Assembly: GCA_036272255.1 (NCBI GenBank)
Contig: DATAZC010000034.1
Coordinates: 716-64,715, forward strand
Direction: 5' to 3'
Length of the DNA stretch: 64,000 bases
Origin: Acidobacteriaceae bacterium
Lineage (GTDB): Bacteria; Acidobacteriota; Terriglobia; Terriglobales; Acidobacteriaceae
Each line of letters starts with the position of its first letter. Positions within the stretch are counted from its first letter, which is position 1. Under the pieces are notes generated by a model. It worked only from the letters and a program-made list of their open reading frames with translations. It searched no databases and had not been told where the DNA came from. The position numbers and the translations under genes are program-made. Shown here in pieces: positions 12,593-33,643 of this stretch.

Positions 12593-13243
12593 ATGAGCAC
12601 ACTCGGGTTCGTTGTGCTGATCTGTCTGTTCGTTCTGGTGCTGGGCATCTGCATCGGATTGCTGCTCGCGCTGTGGTGGAGGCGCAGGCATCCATCCCCT
12701 TTGCCGCCTCCACCGCCTCCACCGCCGTGTCCGCCAACCTACAAGATTCCCGATCAGCTCGGCGAGACCGATCTCACCACGCAAATCAGCGTGCGTCTCA
12801 TGGGCACAACGGCCAACGGAGTTCCACTGGCCGCCGGCACTGCTGCACCCACCAGCGTTATCTGGGTTGACCACGGCAATGAAGTCCTTGTGCATCTGGA
12901 CTCGACCGCGGTGCGCATTCTCGATCGCATGGTGTTGGTATCGGTCGATCTGGAGACCGACCAGACCGGCCGCACTCCGTTGATTTGCAGCTTCGCAGTC
13001 AGTGGCGCCGGCGAACTCGGTGGTCTCGCGGCGACCACCGACGAATTACCGCGCGGACTTGGATCACTCGCCTCGGCATGGGGCGCTCAGTTACAAACGG
13101 CGGTCTGGTCCACCCTGATGGGACTGGTGAATGATCACGCCTCGGAACGGAGCCTGACCCCGCGTGCACTCTCGGCCAGCGCCGGAACCCTCAGCCTGAA
13201 CGCAGGAGCTGCGCTCACCACAAGCCCGGGAGGCGCGGTATGA
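12593..13243 (+). CDS. Operon gene A: N-terminally membrane-anchored protein with polyproline linker, unknown function
   Basis: TM helix LGFVVLICLFVLVLGICIGLLLALWW, then RRRH, then PSPLPPPPPPPPCPP, then a ~160-aa globular part. Its stop overlaps the gene B start (ATGA, 13240-13243). Confidence 0.75.
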   Translation: MSTLGFVVLICLFVLVLGICIGLLLALWWRRRHPSPLPPPPPPPPCPPTYKIPDQLGETDLTTQISVRLMGTTANGVPLAAGTAAPTSVIWVDHGNEVLVHLDSTAVRILDRMVLVSVDLETDQTGRTPLICSFAVSGAGELGGLAATTDELPRGLGSLASAWGAQLQTAVWSTLMGLVNDHASERSLTPRALSASAGTLSLNAGAALTTSPGGAV

Positions 13244-16200
13244 GCGACGGCCTCGGTAACGAAGTTCTCGATCTGGGCAAGGCGATCGGCCTGTTCGACG
13301 ACAGCGGTAATCTCCAGCCGCATTGGTTCGAGAATCCTCTGGGCAACATCGAAAGCATCTTCACGACGGATACACAGCGAGCCGCGTTTCTACGCGTGCT
13401 CGACGCACTGCTTGCGCCGGTCCAGTTGCCTGATCTTCCCGCGAATGAAACCTGGCATCCGTTGTTCGGAGATCAGACACGCGGCAATGCCTATCTCACC
13501 GTCAACACCACCAACGGAGTCACCTTCGGCTTTGCCGGCGAATTCCACTCCAGCGATGGTCCGCCGCCGCTCGCATCACTCACAGCCCATCTGCCTCTGA
13601 TCAGCGTAAACGGCGGCAACGTGACTGCAGTGGCTGGCACAGCGAATGGCCCGCTCGATGTCAGCCTCCGCCTGCATCTCGGATTTACTTTCCCGGCCGA
13701 CCCCATCGGTCTCGATTCGGTGATCGTCACCGCCAGCCTGACCCCGCTGGGAGGCAGTACACCGGCAACTCTAACGGTCGATCTTGAAGGGCTGCAACTG
13801 GACGCTACCGGCCCGAAGAACATCACCCTGGATCCATCGAACATGGGTTCGGAGTCGGTCCACCTGATCATCGGCTTTATTCAGGAGCAGCTCACACGTC
13901 TCGCAGCAAACTCGGGTGAAGCCGGAGCCGTGACCGCACACCTGCTGCAGTTACTCGGTTTCGGCGACACCACGATTCCGCAGTTCCCGTTCACGCAGCT
14001 TGGAAACCCATCCGCCATTAACACCTGGTTCGCCTCACTCCTGCAGGGAGGAGCGTCGGCTCCGGTCGTGCATTGGCTGGGCCATCTCGCCGGTCTGATC
14101 GGCGTGAGCACTCCGACCGTAACCGGGTCGGGCACTCCAGCCGATCCATGGGTTGCGCCGGTGTTGCCGATCGGTACTGCGGCAGGCTCGGGCCTGAACA
14201 TTACTTTCGCCACCACAACCGTCTCGTCCACAACCTCGCTGCTCATCGGCCTGCAGGCTCGCGTCATTCCCGGGGGAGCGAACCCGCCGGTGCGCATTGA
14301 AGGCAACGCGATCATTGCCTCGATCCCGATCACCGGCACCGGGTCCGCTGCGGTATTGCCATCCGCCTCCGTTACCGCGATTGCTCCCGGAGCTGTCGGT
14401 GCGGGAGCGCTGGTCAGCAATGCGACGATCTCCGTCGAGTCCGTGCGCGCCGGATTTAACTGGACTGGCTCCGCACTGCAGCCGCTGCTCGAGCTGGATA
14501 CAGTCACTCTCACCCTTCTCGGCGCCACCAACAGCTACGACAAAATCGACCTGACCAATGCCGACAGCGTCGCCAGCGATGTCTCCACGGCTATTGGAAA
14601 TACGATTCGCGGATATTTCGGCACCACGGGTCCAGGCAGCGATCTGGCGGCGTTAGCCGGTATCATTCCGCCGGGGAACGATCCAGCGTCGCCGCATACG
14701 GTGCGGCTGCCGCAGTTCCTTGCCAACCCTTCCCAGGAAATCGGAGCGGTCCATCGCGCCGTCCTCCTCGACAATGCCCATCCCTGGTCGCACATGCTGG
14801 AGGAGATCGGCGGCCTGGTCGGGATCACTACGGCGGTCACCGGATCCGGAACGCGCACCGATCCATGGGTTCTTGAACTCGCTCCGCCTTCCACTTTTCA
14901 CATCGAGATCGCCGCGTGGAACGACCAGACCAGCGGCGTGGCCACCGACCCTCAGAAACTTCGCATCGGACTGCGCGCGTCCTTCGAGCAGGCTCCCGTC
15001 GACGTGTACTGGCTGGCTGAGCTGCTCGCCATCGATCTGCCGCAGTCCGGTTCGGGAACCATCTCGCTCATGGCTGGGCAGCACGCCCACGTCGGTGTCC
15101 AGCCCATCCCCACGATTCCGTCCGTTGGCGGCCTATCGCTCAGCATCGCGGACTTCGCCGCGGACATGACGTTTACGCCGGGCACTCCGTTGGCATGGAG
15201 TGCAGGTCTTCAGAACGTCTCCCTCACTTACGCGGGAAACACCATTAACGTTCCGTCGATTGGCTTCCCGCTCACGGCGCCGTTCGATGTTACGAATCCA
15301 GCCGCTATTGCCGCCGACTTTGGACTGACGATTCCAAATCTGGAGTTGCTGCTTCGCCTCATCCTGGCGCGAGCGCTGTCTTCGTGGGGCGGCATGCCGG
15401 CGTTCACACTCGCCGGACTCCTTGGAGTGCACGGCGGTCTCGACGGACTTTCTGCCGACTGGCCCGCGCTTGCCGATCCCGGAGCTGCCGGCTCGCTCCT
15501 GAGCGATCCATTCACAGCGCTGCGCAACTGGCTTGCGTCGGTGGCCACCGGGGTTTCCGCCGACGGCCAGGCTTTTCTGCCGCAGATCCTTCCATGGCTG
15601 CGCGGGCTTCTTGCTGACGCGCTGCCGGCTGCTCCGGGCAACCCACTCGACGGCTTCAGCCTGCCCATCAGCGGCTCCGGAACCTACGATGATCCGTGGG
15701 CACTCCCACTCACGACAACCGCTTCGACCAACGTCGATGCACTTGTGTGGCTGGAGCCTGCCGGTCCGCCGCCCGCCTGGGCTACGCCGCTGATCGCAGC
15801 AGCGGCCGGAGCGGCGAATTTCTCAACCCTGTTCCAGGTTGCGCAAAGTATCGCGCCCTTCGTGCCTGCGCTGAGCAACAATCTCTTCGGCAACGATCCG
15901 GGTCTGCTCGCCGATGCGCTGAACTCGCTGTCTTCTCTTTTCACCACTGGAGACGGTGTCGTTCCGCTGGCCTCACAAGTGCCCACCAGCACCAACTGGA
16001 CTGCCGGCACTACGCTCTCGAGCGCGCATCCCGCACAACCATCGGATCCGGCTGCCATCACGCAAATTCTTACTCAGGTCGACACTCTTGCCGGAGGCGC
16101 GGGTGGAGCCCGCACCGTTTTGCTGCTCGGTCCGGCATTCAGCGACCACACCATCTGGACGACGCTGCTGGCCGATCCCAACGTCCACGGCACAACGGCC

Positions 16201-19200
16201 GCCGCCACCAACTTCAACCTGCGTGTTCCCGGCCTCGATCCCTCCGCCGTTGACCTCACCACGGTCACCGCCCAGGCGTCCTGGTACAGCGCCGATCTCG
16301 GCGACGACGGAACCGGCAACCTCACATCGCTCACCGCACAAATCGCCCGGCTCGTCGCGCGCGTGCAACAGCTCAACGGAACCGGGCCGGTCACCCTGGT
16401 TGCTCACTCAACGGCCGGTGTCGCCGCTCTCGCCTTCACTGCCGCTAATCCGACCCTGGTGCAGGGCCTCATCACACTGGGCACGCCTCATCTTGGCGCA
16501 TCGCTGCCGTTTCTTTCCGACAGCCGTGTGGGCGACGCACTGCGCGTCCTTCAGATCCTGCGCCCGCAGATTGCCGGGAGTCCACTCCGCGATGCTCTCG
16601 ATTTCCTGCTGCTGGCACTGGATGGCTATCAACCCGCTGCCGCTGGAACGTTGCCTGTCGCATCGGCATTGCCGGCTGGATCGTTCCCCGCGCCCATCAC
16701 CGCGCCGGCCAGTATCGACTCGGGCGGACGCCCCGTCCTCGCCATCGGTAGCCAACTCGGCAGCCGTCTGCTCGACGCGCTGAAGCCCGCACTGTCGGCT
16801 CTCGCGAATACTGCTGCTAATCCCACAACCGCGCCGGCCGCCCCAACGCATCTTGCTTTCGGCGCGCGCGCGCACATGAACCTTGCCACATCAGCTGCGG
16901 GCAACGTCGCCGTAGACACAACCATGCGCGGCGATCTCTTCCAGTTCCCGCTGCACAGCGGAGCCGCAGCCCCGCCTCATCCCGCCCACGGCCTCTACGT
17001 GCGTGCGAAGCTCACCAATCCGAACGGCTGGCTGGTGGGCGCGTCGAGTTCGTTTGCCGGAACGGGCCTGCCGCCCGTCGATGTGCGCGTGCGCTGGGCT
17101 GAGATTGGCGCCGATATCACCACCTCAACCGGGGGACTGAAAGTCAACCCGGTCGTGAATTTGCACCAGGTTTCGTGGCACGGTCCGGTCGTCGATTCGG
17201 CTTCGTTCACCGATGCCAACGCCCAGGCTCTGCTGGGCGCAGTGCTGCAGACCATCAGCTCGCCGCTTCCCGCGTCCACGTCGCCGGCTGGCATTCTGCT
17301 GTCCACACTCCAAGCCCTCAATGTCGCGGTGGTCGATAGCCACGGTGGCATCGGTATCTCTGCGGACGCCTTCAGCGCCATCACCGCCGACGCAGCCGGA
17401 TATCTGTCGACACAACTCTCCTCCGCTCTGAACTCCGCAACGAGCTTTGCAGGATTCACCGCAACCACTGTGGTCATCCCCAGCCGCGGCGTCACCGCAA
17501 CGCCGGAATGGACGATGCCCATCAGCGGGCTGCCGCTGGAAATCTACCTGCTGCCGAATCCGTGGACTATCGGCCTGCGCACGAAATCAACCGGCAGCGG
17601 CCCGGCCAGCTGGACGATCGCACCCGACACCACCCTCACGATCGATGCGAGCGTCGTGATCCCCGCATTCACTCCCAGCCTCGACGCGACCTTTACCCTC
17701 GGCGCATTTTCGTTAGGCTGGTCCAGCACGAACTCGCAGCTCACAGTGAGCGCGCAACCCTGGCTGGCACCGCTTACGCTCATCCCGGCGCCCAGTGCAT
17801 CTGCGCTTGAAGCGGCGCTGAGCAATGCTCTCCCGCGCCTGCTTTTCTCCGGCGCCGCCTCCGCGGTTCTGGAGGCGCTGGCCGGTCCAGGTCTCAAGGT
17901 TGGCCCCATCGACACGTTCTTTACGTCCATGTCGTCGGTGCTCACCGAAGCTACCGCGCTTGGCAACAGCGCCGGCACCGGACTCGATTCCACCAAAATT
18001 ACCAAGCTCCTGCAGTTCATCGGCAACATCGCTGGATTGCCGGCGGGGCCGGGCCTCACGTTGCCTGGCAATCTACAACTCACAGCTACAGGCGCAGGAA
18101 CAAGCGCCGATCCGGTGAAGGTGCAACTGGCCACCACCGCGACCATCGGTGGAGTTCTCGATTTGAGCGGTGGTGTGTCGTTCGACCAACTAACGCACCC
18201 CAGCCCTACCGGCTCTCTGGCTCTCACCATTCCGCCATCGCCTGCGACGCTGCCAGGACCGTGGCAACAAGTCATCGTTGCTTTCGGCGTCAGCTCGGCC
18301 GGCGTTACTTTATCCATCACACCCGTCACCACGCCCACCCCGACACCGGCGATTCAGCTATTGCCCACCTTCAGCGGACTTGGAGCGCTCGCGGCGGGCG
18401 CTGAAGCGTTGTTGCTGCAGGCGCTCAACGCGCTCGTCGCGGCGATCGGTCCGTCGACGGTAATGGACCTGACGCTGGATGTTGCAACGGCCCTGGGCAT
18501 CTACGACAACGTCAATCACTTCAGCACGCATGGCGACGAACTCAAGGCGATGCTGACCGGAAGCTGGCTCAGCGGCTTTACCGCCGCGCAGCGTGGCAGC
18601 ATCGCCACCGCCATCGCCGGCCTCTTCAGCGGCGGCTCGCCGCTGGCAGGAACTCTGCCCGGCACCGTTTCGGCGGGCGCAGGGCCCAACGCCGGAGTCG
18701 TGACCTGGTCTCTTCCGCTCACCGGCGGCGACAGCGGCACCATCAACGTTGCGCTCGGTTGGGATGCGAGCGGTCCGACGGCTACCGTGGGCCTCGCCGA
18801 CGTTAAACTCGCCGACGGTGCGCTCGGCATCACGGCCTCCGGCGGCTATGTCGCTGGTTCTGTGGCTGTCACCGCAGCGTTGGGCGTTCATCTTGAAAGC
18901 GCCATTGGCATCCCTCTCGTTCCCACTCTTTCGCTCATCGAAAGCGGTGGCAACTTCCAGCTCGAGCTCTACCCACTGGCCAGCGGATCGGGAACCACGT
19001 TCACCACCGGCCCCATCACCATCGACTTCATTCCGCCGGCGCTGCATATGGCTGCGAGCGGTCCGGTCGCGCTGATCGAACAGTTCCTGGTGCCGCTGGT
19101 CGGCAATACTCTGCTCTCCACTACGGCGATCAAGAACGCCTTCGCCACCACGCTCTGGACTGGCGGCCCCACCGTGCAGTCGGTGCTCACCGGCGCGCAG

Positions 19201-22200
19201 ATTGCCGTCCCCAGCGGTGGCAGCCTGGTCATCAATCCCACATTCCCCAGCATCACCGCCGTGGTCACCGGCTTGCTCAGCACGCTTGCGACCGGAGTGA
19301 AACTGCCGCTGACGAGCACGCTGAATCTTTCCCTCGTCAACACCGCCAATCGTCTCGGTGTGCGCATTGCCGGCAGCCAGGATTTTCCCATTGGCGACTA
19401 CGACCTCAGCATGCTGTTTGGCGCGCCGGTTGCGTGGGGAACCGGCTTCGATTCCGGCGTGACGGTTTATCTGTTCGACGTTGCCGGTGGCAACTTCACC
19501 TTCAATCCTGGAATTCTCGCCGTCGGCCTGGGGCTTGGCCTTACCGGCCAGAACGATGCTCCGTTAGTGAACACCAACGGATTCCGCATCGGTGGCGTTC
19601 GCCTCTACACCTTCTTCTGGGGCGCATTCTCGGGCGGCTTCAGTCTGAGCGGGCTGGGCGTCGGCGCCGAGATCGATGCGCTGGGCTTGCCGCTTTCTCA
19701 GGCCACCGGACCCAATGTGGGTGGCAATAATCCCGTTGCGTCGAGCCTGCTCGGTGGTGGTGGCGATGGCGGCAACCGAGGCGGCGACACGCAACCTCCC
19801 AATCCCGCGGTCGATGTCGCGGCCTGGTACTGGACTGCACCGACTGACTCCAACCAGCCCACTCCGCCGGCCGGAGACAGCACCTTCCATATTCTCTTTT
19901 CCGGCAACGACCAGCCGATCTGGATTGGCGTCCACGCCCAACTCGGCCCCATCTACCTCGACCAGATCGGCATTATCCTCAACGGCAACACGTCAGCATC
20001 GCTGGTCCTCGACGCCACGGTGAAGGTTGGTCCATTGACCGGCCAGGTCGACGAGCTCGGCGTGACCATCCCCTTCAAGTCCCTCATGCATCCAGGCGAC
20101 TGGACACTCGATCTGAAAGGTCTCGCCCTCAGCTTCTCCACGCCAGGCATCACCATCGCGGGAGCGCTGCTGAAGAACGACAGCGGCGGTACGGTCGAGT
20201 ACGACGGTATGCTGCTGATCCAGATCACCGAGTTCGGTCTGGTCGCGGTTGGCGCTTACTCAAAACCCACAGACGCAGAGGGCGATTACACCAGCGTCTT
20301 CATCTTCGCTGGCCTCTTCATCATCATCGGCATTCCGCCGGTGATTGAAGTCGACGCTATCGGCGTCGGCTTCGGTTATAACCGCGAACTCATCGTGCCG
20401 GACGACATCAACCAGATTCCCAGCTTCATTCTGGTCGCGGCTCTCGACGATGGCGGCGCGCTCGCCAACGACCCCATGGGCGAGCTGATGCAGATCCGGG
20501 ACAGCATCCCGGCCAAACGCGGCAGCCTGTGGTTCGCCGTGGGTCTGCACGGCACGACGTTCGTCATCGTGCACGTCACAGCGATCGTCTATGTTGCGCT
20601 CGATCGCGGCGTCGAGATCGGCCTGCTCGGCGTGGCCCGCATGGCCATTCCTTCCGACGACACAGCTTTGGTCAGCGTGGAGCTGGCCCTCAAAGCGCGG
20701 TATTCCTCGGCCGATGGCACGCTTTCTATCCAGGCCCAGCTCACTTCCAACTCCTACATCTTCGATAAAGACTGCCAGCTCACCGGCGGCTTCGCCTACT
20801 TCATGTGGTTCCCGCAGGGCCAGTTCGTTCTGACCCTCGGCGGCTACAACCCGCACTTCATCAAGCCCACGCAGTTTCCCGACGTTCCGCGGCTTGGGTT
20901 CAACTGGGGCCTGCCCGTCGGCGCCACCATCAAAGGCGAAAACTACTTCGCGCTGACCAACACCTGCATCATGGCCGGCGGCCGTCTCGAAGTGACGTAC
21001 GGCATTTCGTGCGCCTACGTTTGGTTCACTGCGTATGCCGACTTTCTTATCTCGTGGGATCCGTTCTATTACGAGATCGACATCGGCGTTTCCGTCGGGG
21101 CTACGTTCTCGATCCAGGCTTGCTTCTGGGGATTCTGCGTCGGCGTCAGCGTCACGGTCTCACTCGGTGCCACGCTCACCATCGAAGGGCCGCCACTGCA
21201 CGGTACCGCCACCGTCGACCTCGCCATATGCAGCGTAACGGTGGCCTTTGGTTCTGACGCGAATCCGCAGCCGCCCTACATCACGGACTTCAATGTCTTC
21301 GCAACGAAATATTTGTTCGGCAACGATCCCAATGGCAACGCGTTCCGCGTGGACGTCCTCACCGGTCTGGTGCCGCCATCGCCGTCAGGTGCGGCTCCGG
21401 CTCCCGGCACTTCCGATAAACCCTGGCAGATGGTGAGCGAATTCTCCTTCCAGTGCGACACCAAAATGCCGGCCACCATCACCAACGACTTCGTCTTCGG
21501 CGATCAGGACCAGAGCGGCAACGTGCACTCCATCGATCTTGCTCCCATGAACAAGGAGACGGTGGGCACCAAAATGGTGGTGACGCTGTTCGGGCTCGAT
21601 GGCAATAACTGGACGGCGATCAGCGTTCAGAGCCCGAATTCCAATGCGGATTTCCAGATCGACACGCTGCACTGGATCATGACGCCGATTGTCGGCAAGG
21701 TTTCAGAAGCCACATGGCACTGGAACGATCCATCCAACATGCCGGCCGCTGCAAATACTGTTCCCGCAGTGGTGGGCCTCACGATCCAGGGATTCTGCTT
21801 CTTCGAAGGCAAGTCGGCTCTCATTCCCATTGCGAAGCTCTACGACACAGGCGATAGCCGCCCTCTGCCCTTCGCCACCGATTTCACGCTCACCTACGCT
21901 CAATACCAGGCGTACGGCGCATCGGCAGTGCAGCTGGCCGAACTCACCGCCGCTGCCGGATCGAACAGCACACTGCTGATCGCGAGCGCCATCACCACCG
22001 GCGCAAGCGGCTTCTTCGCCGATCAACGCAGCACTGCGGGACTGCCGGTGGGTGGCAACTCGCCGGTAGCCAATCTGGCACTACTCACCGATCGCTCAGC
22101 GCCACCCCTGGTCGTTCCAATCACGACGGGTCTGACCATGAAGCCCCCGGCCTTGCCTGCACCGCCGGTCATCGTTCGCCCACCGGTCATCCTGCCAGTC

Positions 22201-23412
22201 GCGCTGCAGCAGCCTCGCCTGCGTGCGGTGCTGCGCGGCTTGCCGCAGCCGGTGAGCGATGTGCCTGCGACTCTGCGCACCACCGTGACCAAAGTTGCTG
22301 CCGCTGCCGGAGGCACGCGCATGGCAGCGCCGCTGGCAAATGCTCTCGGCTCCAGCCTGATCCGCGTGAAAGCGCCTACCGCACCGGCCGCAACAAAGCT
22401 CTCGAAACCGGGGAACACGCTGCGGACGCCCGACCTCGGATGGACCTCCGGCACCGCGCATCAGCAGGAGATGACGGACGCACTCGCCGCCTTCCAGGGT
22501 AACGGCCTCACGATTCCCGCCGGCACTACACATATCTGGGATGTCCCGGCTGGTTCGCAGCAGGAAATGGTTATCACCGGCGATTCGGCCTTCCGGATTA
22601 CGTTCCTCACCCGCGGCGGCTCTGTTCTGGGTGACAGCGAGTATCCGCCCGCGCCGTCCACGGCACCGCAAACAACTGTGCAGCTGCCGGCCAACTGCGG
22701 CATGGTTTCGATCGATTGCCTCGGCAAACTTCCTGCAGGCTCTGTCTCCGTTGCCCCAGGCTTCGCCGCTGTTGCCTTCACCGCCGCGCCCGCCGGGAAG
22801 AAGACGGTGGCCGGATGGCAGGCCGGCAATTTGCTTCCGCAGGCTGGACCCACAACCATCCTTGGCCGCGGTTCCTGCCTGATGCTGCCGCAGACGCACA
22901 TTCCGTTGCGCAACCGCCAGGCGATTGCGCAGACCATGGTCCGCGTCTCCGACGCGGTCGCCGATCAGATCGGCACCGAGACCTGGCTTCCGACCTCAAT
23001 TGGTGTGGTCATGATTCTTCTCGATCTGCAGGACGCCACCGCTACGGCCGATGGCGATCTGGCCCTGAGCGCTCAGGGAGCCACGCTTTCGACGAATCCT
23101 GTTCGCATTCTCGGCGGACGTCGCCGCGCGTTGCTCTATGACGTGAGCAATGCCGATTCCACCGCAAGCCACATCATCATCGGCGTTGCCAGCGTTACCG
23201 GCTGGCGTCTCTCCGGTGTTGTGGGCATGCCCGGCAAAGCACAGGAGTGGGCCACCGACCTGCAGGGCAAAGTCCCGGAGCACATCGTCCCCGACGGCCC
23301 GCTTACGCCCGACGGCAGCATCTCCGTCCGCATGATCGCGAATCCATCTGCCCCGGCGAATCCAGCCGCGAAAACCGGCGCTAAGCCAGCCCTTACAGGA
23401 GCCGCCCGATGA
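13240..23412 (+). CDS. Operon gene B: giant 3390-aa protein, unknown function (repeat modules, lipase-like core, DUF6603-like block)
   Basis: A 10.2-kb uninterrupted ORF, far longer than any antisense artefact ORF in this window (maximum about 550 aa). GGGAGG lies 8 nt upstream, both ends have ATGA coupling, and codons are GC3-rich. There is no signal peptide. Confidence 0.85.
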   Translation: MSDGLGNEVLDLGKAIGLFDDSGNLQPHWFENPLGNIESIFTTDTQRAAFLRVLDALLAPVQLPDLPANETWHPLFGDQTRGNAYLTVNTTNGVTFGFAGEFHSSDGPPPLASLTAHLPLISVNGGNVTAVAGTANGPLDVSLRLHLGFTFPADPIGLDSVIVTASLTPLGGSTPATLTVDLEGLQLDATGPKNITLDPSNMGSESVHLIIGFIQEQLTRLAANSGEAGAVTAHLLQLLGFGDTTIPQFPFTQLGNPSAINTWFASLLQGGASAPVVHWLGHLAGLIGVSTPTVTGSGTPADPWVAPVLPIGTAAGSGLNITFATTTVSSTTSLLIGLQARVIPGGANPPVRIEGNAIIASIPITGTGSAAVLPSASVTAIAPGAVGAGALVSNATISVESVRAGFNWTGSALQPLLELDTVTLTLLGATNSYDKIDLTNADSVASDVSTAIGNTIRGYFGTTGPGSDLAALAGIIPPGNDPASPHTVRLPQFLANPSQEIGAVHRAVLLDNAHPWSHMLEEIGGLVGITTAVTGSGTRTDPWVLELAPPSTFHIEIAAWNDQTSGVATDPQKLRIGLRASFEQAPVDVYWLAELLAIDLPQSGSGTISLMAGQHAHVGVQPIPTIPSVGGLSLSIADFAADMTFTPGTPLAWSAGLQNVSLTYAGNTINVPSIGFPLTAPFDVTNPAAIAADFGLTIPNLELLLRLILARALSSWGGMPAFTLAGLLGVHGGLDGLSADWPALADPGAAGSLLSDPFTALRNWLASVATGVSADGQAFLPQILPWLRGLLADALPAAPGNPLDGFSLPISGSGTYDDPWALPLTTTASTNVDALVWLEPAGPPPAWATPLIAAAAGAANFSTLFQVAQSIAPFVPALSNNLFGNDPGLLADALNSLSSLFTTGDGVVPLASQVPTSTNWTAGTTLSSAHPAQPSDPAAITQILTQVDTLAGGAGGARTVLLLGPAFSDHTIWTTLLADPNVHGTTAAATNFNLRVPGLDPSAVDLTTVTAQASWYSADLGDDGTGNLTSLTAQIARLVARVQQLNGTGPVTLVAHSTAGVAALAFTAANPTLVQGLITLGTPHLGASLPFLSDSRVGDALRVLQILRPQIAGSPLRDALDFLLLALDGYQPAAAGTLPVASALPAGSFPAPITAPASIDSGGRPVLAIGSQLGSRLLDALKPALSALANTAANPTTAPAAPTHLAFGARAHMNLATSAAGNVAVDTTMRGDLFQFPLHSGAAAPPHPAHGLYVRAKLTNPNGWLVGASSSFAGTGLPPVDVRVRWAEIGADITTSTGGLKVNPVVNLHQVSWHGPVVDSASFTDANAQALLGAVLQTISSPLPASTSPAGILLSTLQALNVAVVDSHGGIGISADAFSAITADAAGYLSTQLSSALNSATSFAGFTATTVVIPSRGVTATPEWTMPISGLPLEIYLLPNPWTIGLRTKSTGSGPASWTIAPDTTLTIDASVVIPAFTPSLDATFTLGAFSLGWSSTNSQLTVSAQPWLAPLTLIPAPSASALEAALSNALPRLLFSGAASAVLEALAGPGLKVGPIDTFFTSMSSVLTEATALGNSAGTGLDSTKITKLLQFIGNIAGLPAGPGLTLPGNLQLTATGAGTSADPVKVQLATTATIGGVLDLSGGVSFDQLTHPSPTGSLALTIPPSPATLPGPWQQVIVAFGVSSAGVTLSITPVTTPTPTPAIQLLPTFSGLGALAAGAEALLLQALNALVAAIGPSTVMDLTLDVATALGIYDNVNHFSTHGDELKAMLTGSWLSGFTAAQRGSIATAIAGLFSGGSPLAGTLPGTVSAGAGPNAGVVTWSLPLTGGDSGTINVALGWDASGPTATVGLADVKLADGALGITASGGYVAGSVAVTAALGVHLESAIGIPLVPTLSLIESGGNFQLELYPLASGSGTTFTTGPITIDFIPPALHMAASGPVALIEQFLVPLVGNTLLSTTAIKNAFATTLWTGGPTVQSVLTGAQIAVPSGGSLVINPTFPSITAVVTGLLSTLATGVKLPLTSTLNLSLVNTANRLGVRIAGSQDFPIGDYDLSMLFGAPVAWGTGFDSGVTVYLFDVAGGNFTFNPGILAVGLGLGLTGQNDAPLVNTNGFRIGGVRLYTFFWGAFSGGFSLSGLGVGAEIDALGLPLSQATGPNVGGNNPVASSLLGGGGDGGNRGGDTQPPNPAVDVAAWYWTAPTDSNQPTPPAGDSTFHILFSGNDQPIWIGVHAQLGPIYLDQIGIILNGNTSASLVLDATVKVGPLTGQVDELGVTIPFKSLMHPGDWTLDLKGLALSFSTPGITIAGALLKNDSGGTVEYDGMLLIQITEFGLVAVGAYSKPTDAEGDYTSVFIFAGLFIIIGIPPVIEVDAIGVGFGYNRELIVPDDINQIPSFILVAALDDGGALANDPMGELMQIRDSIPAKRGSLWFAVGLHGTTFVIVHVTAIVYVALDRGVEIGLLGVARMAIPSDDTALVSVELALKARYSSADGTLSIQAQLTSNSYIFDKDCQLTGGFAYFMWFPQGQFVLTLGGYNPHFIKPTQFPDVPRLGFNWGLPVGATIKGENYFALTNTCIMAGGRLEVTYGISCAYVWFTAYADFLISWDPFYYEIDIGVSVGATFSIQACFWGFCVGVSVTVSLGATLTIEGPPLHGTATVDLAICSVTVAFGSDANPQPPYITDFNVFATKYLFGNDPNGNAFRVDVLTGLVPPSPSGAAPAPGTSDKPWQMVSEFSFQCDTKMPATITNDFVFGDQDQSGNVHSIDLAPMNKETVGTKMVVTLFGLDGNNWTAISVQSPNSNADFQIDTLHWIMTPIVGKVSEATWHWNDPSNMPAAANTVPAVVGLTIQGFCFFEGKSALIPIAKLYDTGDSRPLPFATDFTLTYAQYQAYGASAVQLAELTAAAGSNSTLLIASAITTGASGFFADQRSTAGLPVGGNSPVANLALLTDRSAPPLVVPITTGLTMKPPALPAPPVIVRPPVILPVALQQPRLRAVLRGLPQPVSDVPATLRTTVTKVAAAAGGTRMAAPLANALGSSLIRVKAPTAPAATKLSKPGNTLRTPDLGWTSGTAHQQEMTDALAAFQGNGLTIPAGTTHIWDVPAGSQQEMVITGDSAFRITFLTRGGSVLGDSEYPPAPSTAPQTTVQLPANCGMVSIDCLGKLPAGSVSVAPGFAAVAFTAAPAGKKTVAGWQAGNLLPQAGPTTILGRGSCLMLPQTHIPLRNRQAIAQTMVRVSDAVADQIGTETWLPTSIGVVMILLDLQDATATADGDLALSAQGATLSTNPVRILGGRRRALLYDVSNADSTASHIIIGVASVTGWRLSGVVGMPGKAQEWATDLQGKVPEHIVPDGPLTPDGSISVRMIANPSAPANPAAKTGAKPALTGAAR
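14026..15720 (+). repeat. Protein-level tandem modules (~240-280 aa) inside gene B marked by [VI][TS]GSGT-xx-DPW
   Basis: VTGSGTPADPW (14119-14151, aa 294), VTGSGTRTDPW (14836-14868, aa 533) and ISGSGTYDDPW (15667-15699, aa 810). Contexts are similar, e.g. W..HL.GL[IV]G upstream and L[LR]IGL[QR]A downstream in the first two. Confidence 0.5.
16111..16512 (+). other. Lipase/PGAP1-like alpha/beta-hydrolase core embedded in gene B
   Basis: VLLLGPAF is a strand plus oxyanion-loop analogue. PVTLVAHSTAGVAALAF is a nucleophile elbow with the Ser codon at 16408-16410 (aa 1057). LITLGTPHLGA is the typical post-nucleophile LGTPHxG strand of PGAP1/DUF676/class-2 lipases. Confidence 0.5.
19948..21270 (+). 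other. Hydrophobic/aromatic beta-rich block in gene B, resembling DUF6603 (recollection, unverified)
   Basis: Motifs: GGFAYFMWFPQGQFVLTLGGYNPHFIKPTQFPDVPRLGFNW, YVWFTAYADFLISWDPFYYEIDIGVSVGATF and the TM-like SVFIFAGLFIIIGIPPVIEV. A Gly-rich hinge at 19714-19806 precedes it. Confidence 0.45.
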
Positions 23413-25232: not shown

Positions 25233-25235
25233 CCA

Positions 25236-26294
25236 ATGCGCACCCCGTGGATCCAATCCAGCACCGCTCTCAAAGAACGCCTTCTGCGTCCCATCCAGCT
25301 TGATACCACCGAGCCCGAGTCGGAGATGCCTCCTTATATGGAGCTCTTTCTTTCTCATCTCCGCCTGTTGGTCGGCATCCCCTTCGATTACCTTGTCCCT
25401 GATGATCGCCTGCTCCCCGACGAGTCCATTCGCTTCTTTTACATCGACCGCTCGTGGACCGATCGCCTGGTCGACGGAGCAATCGCCGTGGGCAAAATCG
25501 GCACTCGCGAACAGGCGCATCACCAGGGCCACGCGCCTGCCGTCAACCAGCAGGTCGATCTCAGCGAGCGCATCGTGCGCACCATTCAGCGCGGCCTCCA
25601 ATCCTTTACCGACGCCAAGTCCGCCAACGATTCGAACACCGCGCCCGCCGATACCATCACCGGATTCCTGCTTCGCTCCTCCGCCGTCAGCGGATGGCCC
25701 CATATGGACGTGCGCGCCTACAAGACGGATGTCGCCGAGCCCTTCGATCCTGCCGATCCGAAAGCGCAGTCTCAACAACTCACGACACTGCGCCTCGAAC
25801 TTCTTTCTCCAGGTTTGATGATTGCGCTTTTCCAGGGCGTTCCTCAGCTTGTCATCCTTGAAGAACCGCACAACGGCGTGATGTTCGGTCTGCATGTCGA
25901 CAACGGAGTAGACAAAATCTATCTGCGCGACAACACCGGGCACCAGATTCCGATTCCTCCGGTCCCCTCACCACCCGCTGATCCCAACTACTATGACATT
26001 GAGCTTCCATTTCGTTCCACCAACAGCCGTGTCGTGCACGTGACCGAATTGCGCCGCCGTCTGAATCAGGCCATCGCGGCGCATCCGACACAGGTCAACG
26101 TCACCGGCTCCGCCAGCTTTGCCATTGCGGTCCTCGATCCCCCATGGCGCCAGCGCTTCGAGGGCACGGTCGACGAAGCCGGCACGCAGAACACCTCCGG
26201 CGGTTTCGTCGCCAACCTGCAAATTGCGCAGCGCGTCTCCGAAAATTCAACCTTCGACGAGGTTAGAAATCTGGTGACCACCTATGGCCATTAA
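25236..26294 (+). CDS. Operon gene D: 352-aa protein, unknown function
   Basis: It starts 3 nt after the gene C stop and its end overlaps gene E by 11 nt. I recognised no motif. Confidence 0.8.
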   Translation: MRTPWIQSSTALKERLLRPIQLDTTEPESEMPPYMELFLSHLRLLVGIPFDYLVPDDRLLPDESIRFFYIDRSWTDRLVDGAIAVGKIGTREQAHHQGHAPAVNQQVDLSERIVRTIQRGLQSFTDAKSANDSNTAPADTITGFLLRSSAVSGWPHMDVRAYKTDVAEPFDPADPKAQSQQLTTLRLELLSPGLMIALFQGVPQLVILEEPHNGVMFGLHVDNGVDKIYLRDNTGHQIPIPPVPSPPADPNYYDIELPFRSTNSRVVHVTELRRRLNQAIAAHPTQVNVTGSASFAIAVLDPPWRQRFEGTVDEAGTQNTSGGFVANLQIAQRVSENSTFDEVRNLVTTYGH

Positions 26295-29200
26295 CACCAG
26301 ACTTTCCTTCACTGACCAGGCAGCCGCCTTCTCGATCGCGTCCGCCTATCGCATCACGCCGAAAGTCATCGGAACGTGGAATCCTTATCTCATCCGCACC
26401 CCGCGCTTGCTGGTACCCATGCAGGTCGACGCGTTGGTCGTTCGTCCGAATGAGCCCACGCAAAGCTGGGCCGACTGCGCGCTCAAACCCGACCCGCAGC
26501 AGACCACGCCGGTCACACGATACGACATCTTGCCCACGCCCTTTGCTGAACTCAAGCAGGCGCGCACAGCTGGAGCTTATCTCCACTGGTCGCTTCCGGA
26601 TGCGCTTACCCATGGCTATGCCGATGCAACGGGGGACACGACAACCTTCCCGGCCGCACCCGATCGCTGGCTCATCCTGCGCACGTATCCATCGCCCACG
26701 ATCTTCCGCGCCGCGGCGGGCACCGTCGGCCTGCGCGGTCTCAAAGGCTGGGTTCTCCGCGCCGGCGACCAGAATCCCGTTCCCATCGATCTGGATTCGT
26801 TCACTGAGGGTCCGCCCTCACAGGACGCGATCAACAATCCGCTCACCGTTCTCGGCACGGGGGACGTAGCCTGGGCCGCGTACTACGACAACTGCGTCAA
26901 CCGTCTGGCGTTCTACGACAGTCTCAGCGATATCTCGGAAGGGCCGGTCAGTTATTTGGTGTGCGGCTGGTACTCCAATCCGGCTCAGGATCCACTGGGC
27001 GACCAGCAGGTGCACTCGCTTACCGACTTCAACAACAAGATGGAGGAATATCAGTGGCAACTCGCGCAGGGTGAGCTCGACGAATCCATCGAGCACGCGC
27101 GCAACTATGTCATCGCCGCCCGCGGCCTCGGACTTGAGACGAATCTCTTCGCTCCGTCCCTTGCCTACAACGACGCACTCAACTCAGCCGCGCCCAAGGT
27201 CGGCTTCGCTGTTTCCGACACGCCTTCCTCGATGCCGCAGTTCAGTGGCACCGGCGAGGCGCTCGGTCCCTACACCACAGATGGATCGTGGTGGCCCAAC
27301 GCCATCCTTGTGCACGGCTGCGTTGTGGCCATTGGCTGGCCCACCGTCGGCTGGCCTGGCAACGAAACTGGTCTCCTCTCCGGCGAGACCGGCGGTCCGC
27401 CGGCGGCATCGGCGATCAACGTCGCAGTGGGGAATACGCTCACGGAGGCGCTCGCCGCGCTGGTCGCGAAACAAAATAATCTGCCCAACGAAGCGCGCAT
27501 CCTCGAAGGTTTTCTCCTCAGCTCTCTGGCAGACCTTGAGCAGCCCGATGGTCGCGCGCGTCTCGATGCGCTCCTGCAGGCTACCGCATTCGGATCGCTC
27601 GACGGCGGGTCCACGACCGAGACCATCAACATCCCCGCCATGCCGGACACGCCGCCGCCGCTGCCCAAGCCGGTGCAGCCCGGCCCCGGCGTCTTCGCCG
27701 GATCGGTGGCAGCAACCAACGCGCAGCAGACGGCATTCGCCAGCGGAAAATTCGTCGAGAACACCGTCAAGCTCGGCGGCACTGCCGCGGCAAAATTCTC
27801 TGAGTCTCTGGAAACCGTGCGCGAGACCACGTTCCTGAACGGCGGACTATCGTCGGTGATCAACGCCGTCCACACTGCGCCTGCGACTCCGCAAATCCCC
27901 GCTCACACCGCTCAAGTGAATCGCGCCCTGCCTCGCCTTTTCTACCCCAGCGAGCCGGTGTTTCTGCTGGAAGGCGCCAGCCGCACCTTTAAATACGGTG
28001 CAGACAATCGCCTCTCTCAGGACGACACGCTGGTGTGCCGCCTCTCCGGTTTTTACGCTGAAGCCGTCAGCGCCAATCTTTCTTCATCCACCGGAGCGCA
28101 AGCGCTCGTCTATCGTCCCACCTCCACTGCCGATCCGATTCTCGAACGCAGCGTTGAGAACGGCAGCGTTCCGCCGGAGTGCGAAGACTTGCTGCGCGAA
28201 CTCATCGTTCTGGATCCATCGGCCGCGGTGAATCTCGCTCAGGCGGCCCTGACACCGGTCAGCCCCTTCCGCATTGCAGCGACTACGACCAATGCCGGTC
28301 CTGCAGCTCCCGTCGCGCCGCCGCCCGCCGCAACCGCCCCTACCACCGCCCAGATCAACGCCGTCGCGAAGAACATTGTCGTCGAGCAAACTGCGTGGTG
28401 GGCCACGCGCGATCCTCGCTTCGACCACGGCCCTCTGGTCGCCAACAGCGGCATCGTCGGTACGTTGCCGTCACCGATTGCCGTTACACCGCCGGTCCAG
28501 CCCTGGAATCCCATTCACCTCGACTGGCAGATCGAGTACATCCCGTCAACCAACGGCGTGGCGGACTGGACCCTTGGCGAAATTGATTACTCCAGCGATC
28601 CCACCATCGCGCCTCCGGCACCGGATCCCACGCAGCAAACGGGCGCGAACGGACAGTCCACGCAGCAACCGCCCGGCAGTCTGACTCTTTCCGGACGCGC
28701 TCATCTCACCGGCGGTGCGGCCGCAACAGCCGCAGCCAGCTTGCGCATTGCTATGACCCAGGCCCAGGCGGCGGGCGGCGCCGGTTCACTCGCGCCCAAT
28801 ACCACTGCGGCGTTTCACTCCGTCTACGCGCAGCTTGCACTCGGCTCCTACGCAAAGATGGCCGAGAACATCAAGGTCCGCATCACTCCGGCGGCTGGGG
28901 CGACAAACACCGTTCCAGCCGTCGATCGCAGCGCGCTTCAGGACATTCTCGACACGCTCGACAGTATGGACGTCCTTGCTGGAGCGGCCGACAACTTCAC
29001 CCGGCAGATGCGTGGAGGCTATCTCCCCGACGGTAAGTCGGCGCCTGCGGACCACTCGATTCCCACCCCGTTTATCCCGCTTCGTGCCGGCTTCATCCGC
29101 ATCCTGCGCCTTCGACTGGTCGACAGCTACGGGCAATTTCTCGATCTGGTCGGCTCCAGCGACACCGCGATCATCGACTCTACCCAACTCATCGAATCCG

Positions 29201-30390
29201 AGTCCCTGCAGACTCCCGGCCGCCCCGAGTTGCTCGCTTTGCCGCCGCGCTACACATCGCCCGCCCGCCTGTGGTTCCGCTACATGGCGGCAGATGGTTC
29301 CGAAAACGAAGCCAATGCGACCACATCGCCGGTTTGCGGATTTCTGATGCCGAATCACCTTGATGGGGATCTGGAGTTTTTCGATGATGCTGGCGGAAAT
29401 CTCGGTTTCGTCCGCCCCGACCCACAGGCAGGGATCGTTTGGGAAGATGCGCCGGGCATTCCATCGACCGTCGGCCAGTCACCGGCGCGCGCCGTCCCCA
29501 ATCCATATGCGGCAGGCGTCGCCGAAGGCCTGTTGCAATGGGGCCTGGCCGACGCCACCAACACCGGCCTTCCCGAGGATGCCCTCAGCGCCATGCTCCG
29601 CATCATCGACTCAACGCTGTGGACCGTTGATCCGTTCGCCAGCTCAACCGATGAGCATCTGTCTTTGCTCGTCGGCCATCCGGTCGTCATTTTGCGCGCA
29701 AGGGTCAAGCTCGAAGTCCAGGAGCCGATCGACACCTCGGTGATCAACACCAAACCGGTTTCGCTTCGACTCGGAGCACTGCCTCAATGGCAGGATGGCC
29801 TCCTCGGTTATTTCGTCAACGACGATTACACCCGCCTCTATTGTGCCGATGCCGCCATTGCCGGTTTCGCCCGCCAGGTAGGCCCCGGGCGCGGCTTCCT
29901 GCAACAGGCCAATCTCGTTCCCGACTACTACCAGACCTTCTCCGATGACATCGGCGATACCGTGACCGAAGGCAACAGTCCGGTCACTCACCCTTATGTC
30001 GACGCGGGCTTGATGACGATCCAGCCGAACCAGGAAGTTTCTCTTACTCTGCTCGTCGAACCACACTGCGTGGTCCATGCAACCTCAGGCATACTGCCGC
30101 GCAAAGAAATCGGGATGCGCCGGGAATGGGTCGCCGCTGCACTGGCCGCGCTGTCGCCTACATTTCGCTTTGGCCCGGTACTGGTCGACCCAAAGACGCT
30201 GCGCATGCCGGTGCCCAATGAGATTCACGGCACCTGGAGCTGGGATCATCGCGCCGACATTACTACGTGGGCCGAGGACCCCATCGTGGCGGCGACGCAG
30301 GACGCTCATCTTCGTCCCGACCCGGCCAGCGGCACTGAGGGCTGGATGCGAATGATGCCGCCACCGCCCCCCGGCAATTCGAAGTCCTGA
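26284..30390 (+). CDS. Operon gene E: 1368-aa protein, unknown function
   Basis: A long GC3-rich ORF overlapping gene D. Three Pro/Ala/Thr/Gln low-complexity linkers lie near 27630-27700, 28282-28353 and 28603-28680. There is no signal peptide and no credible catalytic motif. Confidence 0.8.
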   Translation: MAINTRLSFTDQAAAFSIASAYRITPKVIGTWNPYLIRTPRLLVPMQVDALVVRPNEPTQSWADCALKPDPQQTTPVTRYDILPTPFAELKQARTAGAYLHWSLPDALTHGYADATGDTTTFPAAPDRWLILRTYPSPTIFRAAAGTVGLRGLKGWVLRAGDQNPVPIDLDSFTEGPPSQDAINNPLTVLGTGDVAWAAYYDNCVNRLAFYDSLSDISEGPVSYLVCGWYSNPAQDPLGDQQVHSLTDFNNKMEEYQWQLAQGELDESIEHARNYVIAARGLGLETNLFAPSLAYNDALNSAAPKVGFAVSDTPSSMPQFSGTGEALGPYTTDGSWWPNAILVHGCVVAIGWPTVGWPGNETGLLSGETGGPPAASAINVAVGNTLTEALAALVAKQNNLPNEARILEGFLLSSLADLEQPDGRARLDALLQATAFGSLDGGSTTETINIPAMPDTPPPLPKPVQPGPGVFAGSVAATNAQQTAFASGKFVENTVKLGGTAAAKFSESLETVRETTFLNGGLSSVINAVHTAPATPQIPAHTAQVNRALPRLFYPSEPVFLLEGASRTFKYGADNRLSQDDTLVCRLSGFYAEAVSANLSSSTGAQALVYRPTSTADPILERSVENGSVPPECEDLLRELIVLDPSAAVNLAQAALTPVSPFRIAATTTNAGPAAPVAPPPAATAPTTAQINAVAKNIVVEQTAWWATRDPRFDHGPLVANSGIVGTLPSPIAVTPPVQPWNPIHLDWQIEYIPSTNGVADWTLGEIDYSSDPTIAPPAPDPTQQTGANGQSTQQPPGSLTLSGRAHLTGGAAATAAASLRIAMTQAQAAGGAGSLAPNTTAAFHSVYAQLALGSYAKMAENIKVRITPAAGATNTVPAVDRSALQDILDTLDSMDVLAGAADNFTRQMRGGYLPDGKSAPADHSIPTPFIPLRAGFIRILRLRLVDSYGQFLDLVGSSDTAIIDSTQLIESESLQTPGRPELLALPPRYTSPARLWFRYMAADGSENEANATTSPVCGFLMPNHLDGDLEFFDDAGGNLGFVRPDPQAGIVWEDAPGIPSTVGQSPARAVPNPYAAGVAEGLLQWGLADATNTGLPEDALSAMLRIIDSTLWTVDPFASSTDEHLSLLVGHPVVILRARVKLEVQEPIDTSVINTKPVSLRLGALPQWQDGLLGYFVNDDYTRLYCADAAIAGFARQVGPGRGFLQQANLVPDYYQTFSDDIGDTVTEGNSPVTHPYVDAGLMTIQPNQEVSLTLLVEPHCVVHATSGILPRKEIGMRREWVAAALAALSPTFRFGPVLVDPKTLRMPVPNEIHGTWSWDHRADITTWAEDPIVAATQDAHLRPDPASGTEGWMRMMPPPPPGNSKS

Positions 30391-33400: not shown

Positions 33401-33643
33401 GGCAGCGCCGACTTCTCGCTGAATCCCGCGCCTGCATTTCCAATTGCGATACCACCTGGCGGCGAATCCGATATCACCGTGCAGTTTGCCCCCTCGGGCA
33501 GCGGCGCGCTCACCGCCGAGTTCACCATCGCCAGCGACGACCCACACTCGCCGCTCAAACTCACCGCGTCGGGGACAGGTTTTCAGGCCGCCTCTGGCTT
33601 CTGGACCCAGTTCCTCACGATGCTCGGACTCGCGCATCCGTAG
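30482..33643 (+). CDS. Operon gene F: BNR/Asp-box beta-propeller protein with two C-terminal Ig-like (choice-of-anchor-D/ASH-like) domains, no signal peptide
   Basis: GAGGAG lies 8 nt upstream. At least 11 Asp-box motifs (S-x-D-x-G-x-[TS]-[WF]) are present: TADGGSNWSP, SADAGLTWSI, SIDAGRNF, STNAGITF, SSNSGSTWTQ, SADGGTTFQP, SNDGGKSWNP, STDAGATWAA, STDSGVNFTA, SADSGVTWDA, SIDNGANWTD. Two ~100-aa repeats lie at 32959-33580 (FG.....G......V.N.G.A.L.I.S). Confidence 0.85.
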   Translation: MADPIRKIDPSDVGESGPAFLLDHSDPAGVPRPDVWRQAVADFYQLDLDASVLWSQIGPAPLIVNGDQIFMGIGPDSGEVTDILVDPSGASDQTLYITTDDGGIWKTADGGSNWSPLTDQMFSISMGAVAMDPGNNKILYGGSGNLFDGGSAFTKGAGIYRSADAGLTWSIVDGGYFGSIFANVGIIRIVCPVPDCLLVATSSGLYRSIDAGRNFGANAPTFDDRQPVVPGKICCLLLDSATPASTVYCGVAGTSTDANGNALPNVGLLKSTNAGITFPTNLFSDPTAPQLPYGSFVIAQSSFDRATANSTVIYASVQTTLANGTPSYVGLFRSSNSGSTWTQLNNLSAVASKNVPGDTNNAGFTQTNYDLTLGVDPVNSQRVYAGFQQLWLSADGGTTFQPASITASKVHWDNHVLVFSPATHRPTPPAAPALIPPTILYTGTDGGIATSNDGGKSWNPINTGIASNLFRGIDIGRGGTDNGKGVPNQFTFGGCQDTGTMGHRPTDIAGQWHAGINGDGWLVAVDPTDPTIVYGFDDQYFIKSTDAGATWAATYNSPLTIGKGLSNPQASFARAVALDQTGANAAARTVYVSEISALFKSTDSGVNFTATPLAPAGFITCIVTTVAAAGLVWVGAFDGSVHCSADSGVTWDAAPLNTTPGGAGIPMGPVNSIAVDPTNAQRIAVVYGGVSAINAKYRTRHVFLSIDNGANWTDVSGTDGNGPVGNLPDLPLRSVVFDTSATPAAIVVAGDAGVLRSADATITGTGSTAVGTATWKIYGAGLPMVCCNSLAIDNSVSPPVLRVGTYGRSCYEVTRPTGGPSFASDNNLAFGVAATGQSVTLPFYVYNCGNASLDISASSVVGPGPFTFGATPAFPVSVAPGATQAFQITWAPTATGDDFVLLQLTTNDPTQATSTIPASGTGVNTGLVQRLATNPIASVGFGTVTTGANRTITVQLFNVGTAALNIASITLSNGSADFSLNPAPAFPIAIPPGGESDITVQFAPSGSGALTAEFTIASDDPHSPLKLTASGTGFQAASGFWTQFLTMLGLAHP

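Follow-up and report, generated by a model that had tools for sequence, protein, structure and literature searches.

What does a bacterium encode in a single uninterrupted reading frame of 10.2 kb, and with which other proteins does the product belong? The frame in question (the giant, below) lies in a 64,000-nt stretch of contig DATAZC010000034.1 (GenBank assembly GCA_036272255.1) from an Acidobacteriaceae bacterium; this whole stretch is called the window, and coordinates are positions in it. An initial annotation treated the open reading frame (ORF) alone and described it as a mosaic. We show here that the giant is the large subunit of a conserved, uncharacterised five-gene system (g216, the giant, g607, g352 and g1368), and that this invariant operon with four other unannotated proteins is its most informative feature. 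The picture of a mosaic orphan is to be replaced by that of a fixed-architecture giant subunit of a widespread uncharacterised operon.

Coding evidence and conservation of the giant gene

13240..23412, plus strand: giant ORF, ATG start, 3,390 amino acids (aa), uninterrupted frame

Relatives were collected from a scan of one genome per species, in which contigs were searched with a 15-sequence alignment (A2) of the part of the giant that matches the Pfam family DUF6603. At least 573 genomes encode a relative of this region. ORF recovery and operon order refer to the best 80 loci of these (L007–L086), which yielded about 55 complete orthologous ORFs of 3,100–3,720 aa. Carriers are found in Acidobacteriota, Actinomycetota (Streptomyces, Kribbella, Micromonospora, Actinomadura), Myxococcota, Gemmatimonadota and Chloroflexota, and further in Dormibacterota, Binatota and Alpha-, Beta- and Gammaproteobacteria. 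Fourteen orthologues from distant lineages align collinearly (alignment A3) from residue ~5 to the end at 26–53% identity, with conserved blocks along the whole length, fairly even conservation and few gaps. Judged from this alignment, the architecture (a three-module arm, a lipase-like domain, a middle region, a DUF6603 core and a tail) is fixed across at least six phyla, and it is the same in monoderms and diderms; given such collinearity, the label 'mosaic' is misleading.

An assembly artefact or a spurious ORF was considered, as high-GC DNA gives many long spurious frames, several of 100–270 aa being found on other frames of this window. However, an open frame of this length cannot have arisen by chance, and an identical gene is called on JGI metagenome 3300036823 (contig Ga0376694_0000152, 111 kb). 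The frame starts with an ATG that has GGAGG 8 nt on its 5' side, and it overlaps both neighbours by ATGA stop/start junctions (13240–13243 upstream, 23409–23412 downstream), which indicates translational coupling. The ratio of nonsynonymous to synonymous substitution rates (dN/dS) between the giant and five closer relatives is 0.10–0.16 over ~3,370 codons, a value that points to strong purifying selection. The ~55 complete orthologues, from independent assemblies and at orthologous loci, together with this ratio exclude the artefact hypothesis, whose chance is practically nil in view also of the Pfam match described below (E 2.2e-126). The single giant frame proposed initially is thus borne out, and on the strength of these comparisons we regard it as a genuine, strongly conserved gene.

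A conserved operon around the giant

12593..13243, plus strand: g216 (216 aa), a transmembrane helix, RRRH, a poly-proline linker and a conserved globular core of ~150 aa
23409..25232, plus strand: g607, conserved soluble partner, fused to g352 in short-type systems (see below)
25236..26294, plus strand: g352, conserved soluble partner
26284..30390, plus strand: g1368, conserved large partner, its start overlapping the end of g352
30482..33643, plus strand: g1053, a BNR/sortilin-type propeller and two ASH / choice-of-anchor-D immunoglobulin (Ig)-like domains, starting 92 nt after g1368

According to tblastn, the order g216, giant, g607, g352, g1368 is the same in nearly all of the 80 loci long enough to contain it, while g1053 is limited to closer relatives. 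Comparison of the neighbourhoods across loci found no further conserved genes up- or downstream of the operon. None of the five conserved proteins has a match in NCBIfam, PADLOC (PADLOC-DB) or PHROGs, and g216, g607, g352 and g1368 have none in Pfam either. Searching Pfam with 26 orthologues each of g607, g352 and g1368 gave nothing except one Kelch fusion (a g1368 orthologue joined to a Kelch propeller), and these three proteins matched no PDB sequence, whether used as single sequences or as profiles. No paralogy was detected when g1368, g607, g352 and slices of the giant were compared pairwise, no transmembrane helices were seen in the large operon proteins, and no Sec/Tat signals in any component of the unit. 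AlphaFold2 gave a confident model (pLDDT 84.2, pTM 0.78) for a fused g607/g352 homologue from Archangium (P0121), and this model has no fold match in the PDB (best E 0.11, query-normalised TM-score at most 0.10). The fusions of g607 with g352 and of g1368 with Kelch argue for physical association; a conserved unit with translational coupling and fusions implies that the proteins work together and, probably, that they also associate physically.

In g216, the core motif VIWVDxGDEVLVHLDS is kept in ~50 loci, and the transmembrane helix is restricted to Acidobacteriota and a few other lineages. We note that the domains of g1053 are typical of exported surface proteins, yet this protein has no recognisable signal peptide; 11.3% of its residues are charged.

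A 120-aa ORF with a C-terminal transmembrane segment (window 12170–12532, minus strand; FFCIVALAVIAFLVGIEIYLRRKRR) lies divergently just upstream of g216. In three other loci (L008, L010, L035), tblastn gives weak matches to it at the corresponding place, and from these matches it may be a sixth, small and lineage-restricted component. Farther upstream (window 4466–12007) is an unrelated sugar-use cluster, encoding an outer-membrane barrel of 1,115 aa (CarboxypepD_reg + OMP_b-brl_4), a sugar/ureide-type permease, a PfkB kinase and a GH127-family protein, which is not beside the operon in close relatives.

Domain architecture of the giant protein

13240..13488, plus strand: N-terminal head (aa 1–83), conserved and acidic
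13489..15639, plus strand: three tandem modules of ~250 aa (aa 84–285, 286–525 and 526–800), from hhalign of slices of alignment A3
14125–14151, 14842–14868 and 15673–15699, plus strand: copies of the GSGTxxDPW motif, two of them opening modules two and three and the last lying beyond the modules
16072..16914, plus strand: family-I-lipase-like alpha/beta-hydrolase domain (aa 945–1225), from an orthologue profile match
16408–16410, plus strand: codon of Ser1057 in the putative nucleophile elbow AHS(1057)TAG, which has the form Sm-x-Ser-x-Sm and is aligned to GHSQGG of 1qge and 7cof
16849–16851, plus strand: codon of His1204, from the orthologue alignment
16915..19509, plus strand: middle region (aa 1226–2090), conserved, Ala/Gly/Thr/Leu-rich
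19510..21819, plus strand: beta-sheet core common to short-type proteins (aa 2091–2860; hhalign of alignments A1 and A3 spans 2092–2860)
19705–19827, plus strand: Gly-rich stretch within the core
19930–21312, plus strand: Pfam DUF6603 (PF20248; aa 2231–2691), 422.8 bits, E 2.2e-126
21820..23409, plus strand: C-terminal tail (aa 2861–3390), conserved, specific to the giant type

The N-terminal ~250 aa had been described as a part of its own. This holds for the head, which is conserved from about residue 5 in orthologues; aa 84–285, in contrast, form a third, more diverged copy of the tandem modules (hhalign probability 90.7 against aa 526–800). Since the head has no hydrophobic stretch, and from its acidic composition and its conservation, it is read as not being a signal peptide, in agreement with the initial view. 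The tandem modules reported earlier are true repeats (probability 98.7, E 3e-16, for aa 286–525 against aa 526–800), and their motif, G-[ST]-G-T-x-x-D-P-W at aa 296, 535 and 812, is kept in orthologues. A search of relatives found the N-terminal 830 aa only as the N-terminus of the giant family.

The lipase-like core, placed at aa ~960–1090 at first, is supported by the orthologue profile and extends over aa 945–1225. A profile built from 12 orthologues finds the Burkholderia/Pseudomonas lipases 1qge, 3lip, 1tah, 1cvl and 1ys1 (E 4e-10 to 2e-9), and lipases are the sole matches when a profile of the whole giant is compared with all PDB sequences. TLGTPHLG of the giant aligns with TIGTPHRG of family-I lipases. 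Ser1057 and His1204 are each found in 12 of 14 orthologues; a candidate acid, Asp1118, which would give the order Ser-Asp-His, is kept in nine of 14 and is probably part of a helix. Pfam scores are below threshold (Abhydrolase_1 20.7 bits, cut-off 25.8; PGAP1 17 bits, cut-off 24.3). These similarities, which consist of motifs and a profile match over part of the domain, suggest that the giant belongs to the family-I lipase lineage of alpha/beta-hydrolases.

The ~1,100 aa of Ala/Gly/Thr/Leu-rich sequence noted initially do exist as a region, and they are conserved sequence rather than filler; the Pro-Thr linker described within them (TPVTTPTPTPA, aa 1695–1703, within nt 18307–18354) is not conserved among orthologues. 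Searches of Pfam and the PDB found no relatives of the middle region beyond the giant family. The hydrophobic beta-rich block that follows turned out to be the catalogued family DUF6603: the match spans model positions 1–451 of 502, far above the gathering cut-off of 27 bits, and is found in all 14 orthologues tested. AlphaFold2 predicts the core with confidence (pLDDT 86.2, pTM 0.75, from a 65-sequence alignment) as ~30 beta-strands and three short helices, the strands forming a large antiparallel sheet with one hydrophobic face on most of them. Foldseek found no true match of this model in the PDB or BFVD (BFVD query-normalised TM-score at most 0.18), and comparison with PDB sequences gave no hit either for the core or for the giant as a single sequence. 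Its best PDB neighbours are the beta-belt of ApoB100 and outer-membrane or other membrane barrels, with query-normalised TM-scores of 0.14–0.25; scores reach at most 0.27 for ApoB100 (0.21 query-normalised) and at most 0.34 when normalised to short barrels such as VDAC, with root-mean-square deviations mostly of 13–30 Å and 5–12% identity. Beyond the core, tblastn matches of the tail extend to about query position 3366 in most loci.

A search of Pfam with the giant and 13 orthologues found none of the domains usual in giant bacterial proteins, that is, no domains of non-ribosomal peptide or polyketide synthases and no Rhs/YD, RTX, cadherin/Big or sorting domains, as had been read from the sequence, and no FN3 domains. 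Adenylation, condensation, ketosynthase, acyltransferase and carrier domains are absent from the giant by Pfam and NCBIfam, and from the orthologues by Pfam. A known adhesin or toxin architecture, the other outcome that would have changed the initial view, was not found by homology searches.

In a library of representative proteins we observed one of 5,296 aa (P0337) whose first ~2,108 aa are homologous to the modules, lipase-like domain and middle region of the giant. Its remaining 3,196 aa have no Pfam domain and are unrelated to DUF6603, g607, g352 and g1368; the N-terminal arm of the giant can thus be joined to a different C-terminal body.

Amino acid composition

The composition claimed at first was confirmed by computation: the giant contains 12.9% Ala, 11.7% Leu, 10.9% Gly, 9.6% Thr, 8.0% Pro, 7.6% Ser and 7.1% Val, and only 1.36% Lys, 0.32% Cys, 1.7% Glu and 2.2% Arg. 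Lys is low in every protein of the window (~0.5–3.5%), so that its scarcity in the giant is largely a genome trait. The distinctive trait is low total charge: Lys, Arg, Asp and Glu make up 10.2% of the giant as compared to ~11–24% (most 14–24%) of the other tabulated window proteins, the next-lowest being o457 (10.9%) and g1053 (11.3%). With 10–11% charged residues and ~41% Ala, Gly, Ser and Thr, against ~14–16% charged residues in the outer-membrane proteins of the window, the giant and g1053 appear to have an extracellular-type composition.

Relative to the remainder of the window, the operon region (window 12000–34000) has a slightly higher G+C content (0.60–0.65, as compared to 0.57–0.60) and a GC skew that stays negative (-0.08 to -0.17). 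The C-rich codons of a coding strand rich in Ala, Thr and Pro could account for this shift; alternatively, it possibly reflects foreign origin.

Short-type systems and interchangeable accessory proteins

Some relatives belong to a shorter type, a trio that comprises a DUF6603 protein of ~850–1,200 aa, a fused g607/g352 protein of 640–840 aa and a g1368-like protein of 1,050–1,370 aa. We found it in Archangium, Myxococcus, Sorangium, Cylindrospermum, a plasmid of Paenibacillus polymyxa and megaplasmids of Streptomyces. The fused partner has 1,136 relatives, mostly in myxobacteria and cyanobacteria, all annotated as 'hypothetical' and none with a Pfam domain. Short-type systems have no lipase. 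A Hydrolase_4 gene near one of them (L004) was considered as a detached counterpart and rejected: not even at E 10 did it match the lipase profile, and its position there is probably due to chance.

The accessory gene that follows the operon varies by lineage and encodes a BNR/ASH protein, a Kelch protein, a PQQ propeller, a phage tail-collar protein or a member of a Streptomyces-specific family; tail-collar-domain proteins are also found inside short-type loci of myxobacteria. These classes are typical of surface or receptor binding and are swapped between lineages. BLASTP found no N-terminal docking region shared among the variable binding proteins. A distant DUF6603 relative on a haloarchaeal plasmid adjoins a BGTF surface protein.

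Two short-type loci have conflict-type genes as neighbours. On a plasmid of Streptomyces sp. NBC_01276 (L090; 1074–9519, 22757–25470), the trio adjoins a CATRA caspase/TPR protein, a CHAT protein and transposases. On the Paenibacillus polymyxa plasmid p-YT9A (L087; 1–4230), the neighbours are a VgrG-like 'baseplate assembly protein V' (its gene ~9 kb upstream of the locus), a pentapeptide-repeat protein, a GH-E nuclease fragment and an ankyrin protein. A fic toxin gene, too, is among the neighbours of the system.

Distribution and possible mobility

Identities between phyla are ~55%, on par with those within phyla, and the genomic flanks differ even among close relatives. The distribution is sporadic and resembles that left by horizontal gene transfer. 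Patchy spread, variable flanks, mobile or conflict-related neighbours and carriage on megaplasmids fit an accessory 'conflict' function. The operon is absent from 50,697 phage records (tblastn) and from IMG/VR, and phage origin was rejected on these grounds and for want of a PHROGs match.

We note two loci in particular. A contig binned as Candidatus Dormiibacterota (L009, DASXNH010000177.1) carries the whole operon at 82–88% identity to window 13240–30390, which is either a very recent horizontal transfer or a mis-binned contig of a soil metagenome-assembled genome (MAG). In L002 (ENA ERZ25039562 contig_60863), a tyrosine-recombinase (phage integrase) gene (220–1401) lies ~1.6 kb upstream of the homologous operon (giant at 3824–12667); the giant is split there into calls of 1,969, 98 and 888 aa, probably by assembly frameshift errors, and similar fragmentation is seen in several other 'MFD' long-read MAG loci.

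Possible functions of the system

Our leading reading, a tentative one, is that the subunits form a complex which works independently of Sec and attacks lipids or membranes. Under this reading, the operon proteins would assemble in the cytoplasm into one large complex, which the membrane anchor of g216 would tether in Acidobacteriota. The target of this complex would be a lipid surface, in the most plausible case the envelope of another cell that is reached through release independent of Sec, with the variable propeller, Ig-like or collar protein providing targeting, the amphipathic DUF6603 sheet engaging the membrane and the lipase domain of the giant hydrolysing ester lipids. A complex acting on a foreign lipid surface is favoured by the extracellular-type composition, the swappable binding proteins, the spread suggestive of horizontal transfer and the occasional linkage to integrases, transposases, conflict genes and megaplasmids.

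Several observations count against this proposal. No characterised homologue stands behind any step of the mechanism. The conserved unit encodes no lysis cassette, secretion ATPase or membrane channel, so that release is purely inferred. The predicted topology of g216, a transmembrane helix followed by RRRH, puts its globular domain in the cytoplasm, which suits an intracellular role equally. As short-type systems have no lipase, what the trio does at its core cannot be lipolysis; in the giant type, the nucleophile Ser is lost in two of 14 orthologues and no triad acid is clearly conserved. The composition is only a statistical hint, and the fold similarities of the core model are not evidence of homology.

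The system might instead act inside the cell that carries it, as an abortive-infection-type defence in which a trigger such as phage infection would set off destruction of the cell's own membrane by the DUF6603 sheet and the lipase, with g216 at the inner face of that membrane in some lineages. Large proteins with neither export signals nor transmembrane helices, and a g216 oriented with its C-terminus inside, agree with this, and so do the sporadic, transfer-like distribution with variable flanks, the neighbouring integrase, transposases, CATRA/CHAT genes and fic toxin, and carriage on megaplasmids. We nevertheless consider it unlikely: an extracellular-type composition and surface-type accessory proteins would be unexpected, Pfam detects neither NTPase or nuclease domains nor domains of a sensor type in the giant and its partners, PADLOC gave no match, and phages and IMG/VR contigs, which often carry defence genes, were found not to carry the system. 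Rather less probable is a physiological role as a lipid-handling scaffold, whose amphipathic sheet would bind or bridge lipid surfaces like the ApoB belt or bridge-like lipid-transfer proteins, while the lipase remodels lipid bodies, membranes or vesicles. Such a role accords with the amphipathic strands, the lipase domain, the low overall charge and the presence of lipid-body-forming actinomycetes and myxobacteria among the carriers. The ApoB100 beta-belt as top, though weak, Foldseek neighbour speaks for it as well, but at the low TM-scores given above; there is no AsmA, TamB or Chorein signal in Pfam, genes of housekeeping lipid metabolism are not typically so patchy in distribution and so variable in context, and the swapped propeller and collar partners would be left unexplained.

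Size, the abundance of small and hydroxyl residues, the tandem modules and Ig-like or propeller neighbours recall a giant surface adhesin or fibre of the classical kind, with an export signal that goes unrecognised. There is little chance of this: the giant has three repeats only, as compared to dozens in adhesins, no signal peptide, no sorting signal and no Big, cadherin, FN3 or RTX repeats; no type I or type V secretion system or sortase genes are in the conserved unit, and the architecture is identical in monoderms and diderms. A degenerate baseplate- or fibre-like apparatus derived from a phage tail is very improbable. The tail-collar proteins of myxobacterial loci and the VgrG-like gene in Paenibacillus would fit it, and presumably the sizes of g607 and g352, which recall baseplate wedge pairs. 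However, no tube, sheath or spike genes are present in the conserved unit, the searches of PHROGs, phage records and IMG/VR were negative, and neither the DUF6603 core (BFVD, PDB) nor the g607/g352 homologue (PDB) has a fold match.

A bolder form of the leading reading, likewise tentative, would see in the lipid-attacking complex a new class of Sec-independent lipid-membrane-targeting machine, with folds that have no solved relatives (the DUF6603 core, g607/g352 and g1368), a lipase added in the giant form, interchangeable targeting subunits and horizontal transfer through at least nine phyla of monoderms and diderms.

A 10-kb gene under strong purifying selection is a great cost to its carrier. 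Together with relatives in at least 573 species-level genomes and a constant set of four unannotated partners, it marks a substantial piece of uncharacterised cell biology, in carriers of ecological importance: soil Acidobacteriota, Streptomyces and other actinomycetes, myxobacteria, filamentous cyanobacteria and marine roseobacters. Whatever the function, a defined operon, a domain map and cultivable carriers (among them Kribbella sp., Micromonospora yasonensis DSM 45980, Actinomadura atramentaria DSM 43919, Aliiroseovarius zhejiangensis KCTC 42443 and Variovorax soli NBRC 106424) make the question directly testable. If attack on or remodelling of membranes were true, the system would represent new antagonistic or lipid-handling machinery with new folds and be a possible source of lipases and membrane-active proteins.

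Comparison with known systems

Full-text literature searches found no paper on DUF6603 or PF20248 and nothing relevant on giant genes in Acidobacteria. DUF6603 itself ('DUF6603 domain-containing protein' at NCBI) is a mere database entry, whose members are seen mostly as short-type proteins of ~850–1,200 aa; compared with these, the giant has an extra ~2,090 aa on the N-terminal side and ~530 aa on the C-terminal side of the shared core.

With lipases of families I.1/I.2 (Burkholderia cepacia/glumae, Chromobacterium viscosum, Pseudomonas LipA; PDB 3lip, 1qge, 1tah, 1cvl, 1ex9), the giant has in common the alpha/beta-hydrolase core, an (A/G)HSxxG elbow followed ~20 residues on by (T/I)GTPHxG, and a Ser with a downstream His. 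It differs in that its domain is internal to 3,390 aa, whereas these lipases are secreted enzymes of ~320 aa; the match spans only ~110–140 residues, the Ser–His spacing of 147 aa is shorter, a catalytic Asp is not identifiable and no Lif-type foldase gene lies near the giant. The DUF6603 core resembles its top Foldseek neighbours (the ApoB100 beta-belt, SlpA, LptD, FimD and TonB-dependent transporters) as a ~30-strand antiparallel, largely amphipathic sheet. This likeness is one of local strand geometry only, and DUF6603, in contrast to large outer-membrane barrels, is also found in monoderms, which have no outer membrane.

Two toxin systems are similar in organisation. MARTX toxins are proteins of 3,500–5,300 aa in which repeats, thought to serve in crossing the target membrane, flank internal effectors, one of them an alpha/beta-hydrolase phospholipase. 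The giant has no sequence similarity to them, no Pfam match to RTX glycine-rich nonapeptide repeats or to the cysteine protease domain, and no type I secretion or other transporter genes in its conserved unit. Tc (ABC) toxins comprise several very large soluble subunits encoded in one operon, have no signal peptides and contain a beta-propeller in the assembly; they are released independently of Sec, and their receptor-binding domains vary between lineages. Neither the giant nor its partners match VRP1, SpvB, TcdB_mid or RHS/YD in Pfam, and no Tc cocoon or TcA structure is among the listed top-50 fold matches of the core and P0121 models. Since none of their defining features was found among those tested, MARTX and Tc toxins serve only as analogies of function. 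Membership is established for Pfam DUF6603 alone, plus the lipase lineage as far as motifs and a partial profile match go. With nothing comparable characterised and two confident core models that have no fold relatives, we rate the system as lying outside the known kinds; if the membrane-directed reading is true, it would be an unrecognised family of bacterial weapons or membrane-remodelling devices, with a scope like that of Tc toxins or extracellular contractile injection systems.

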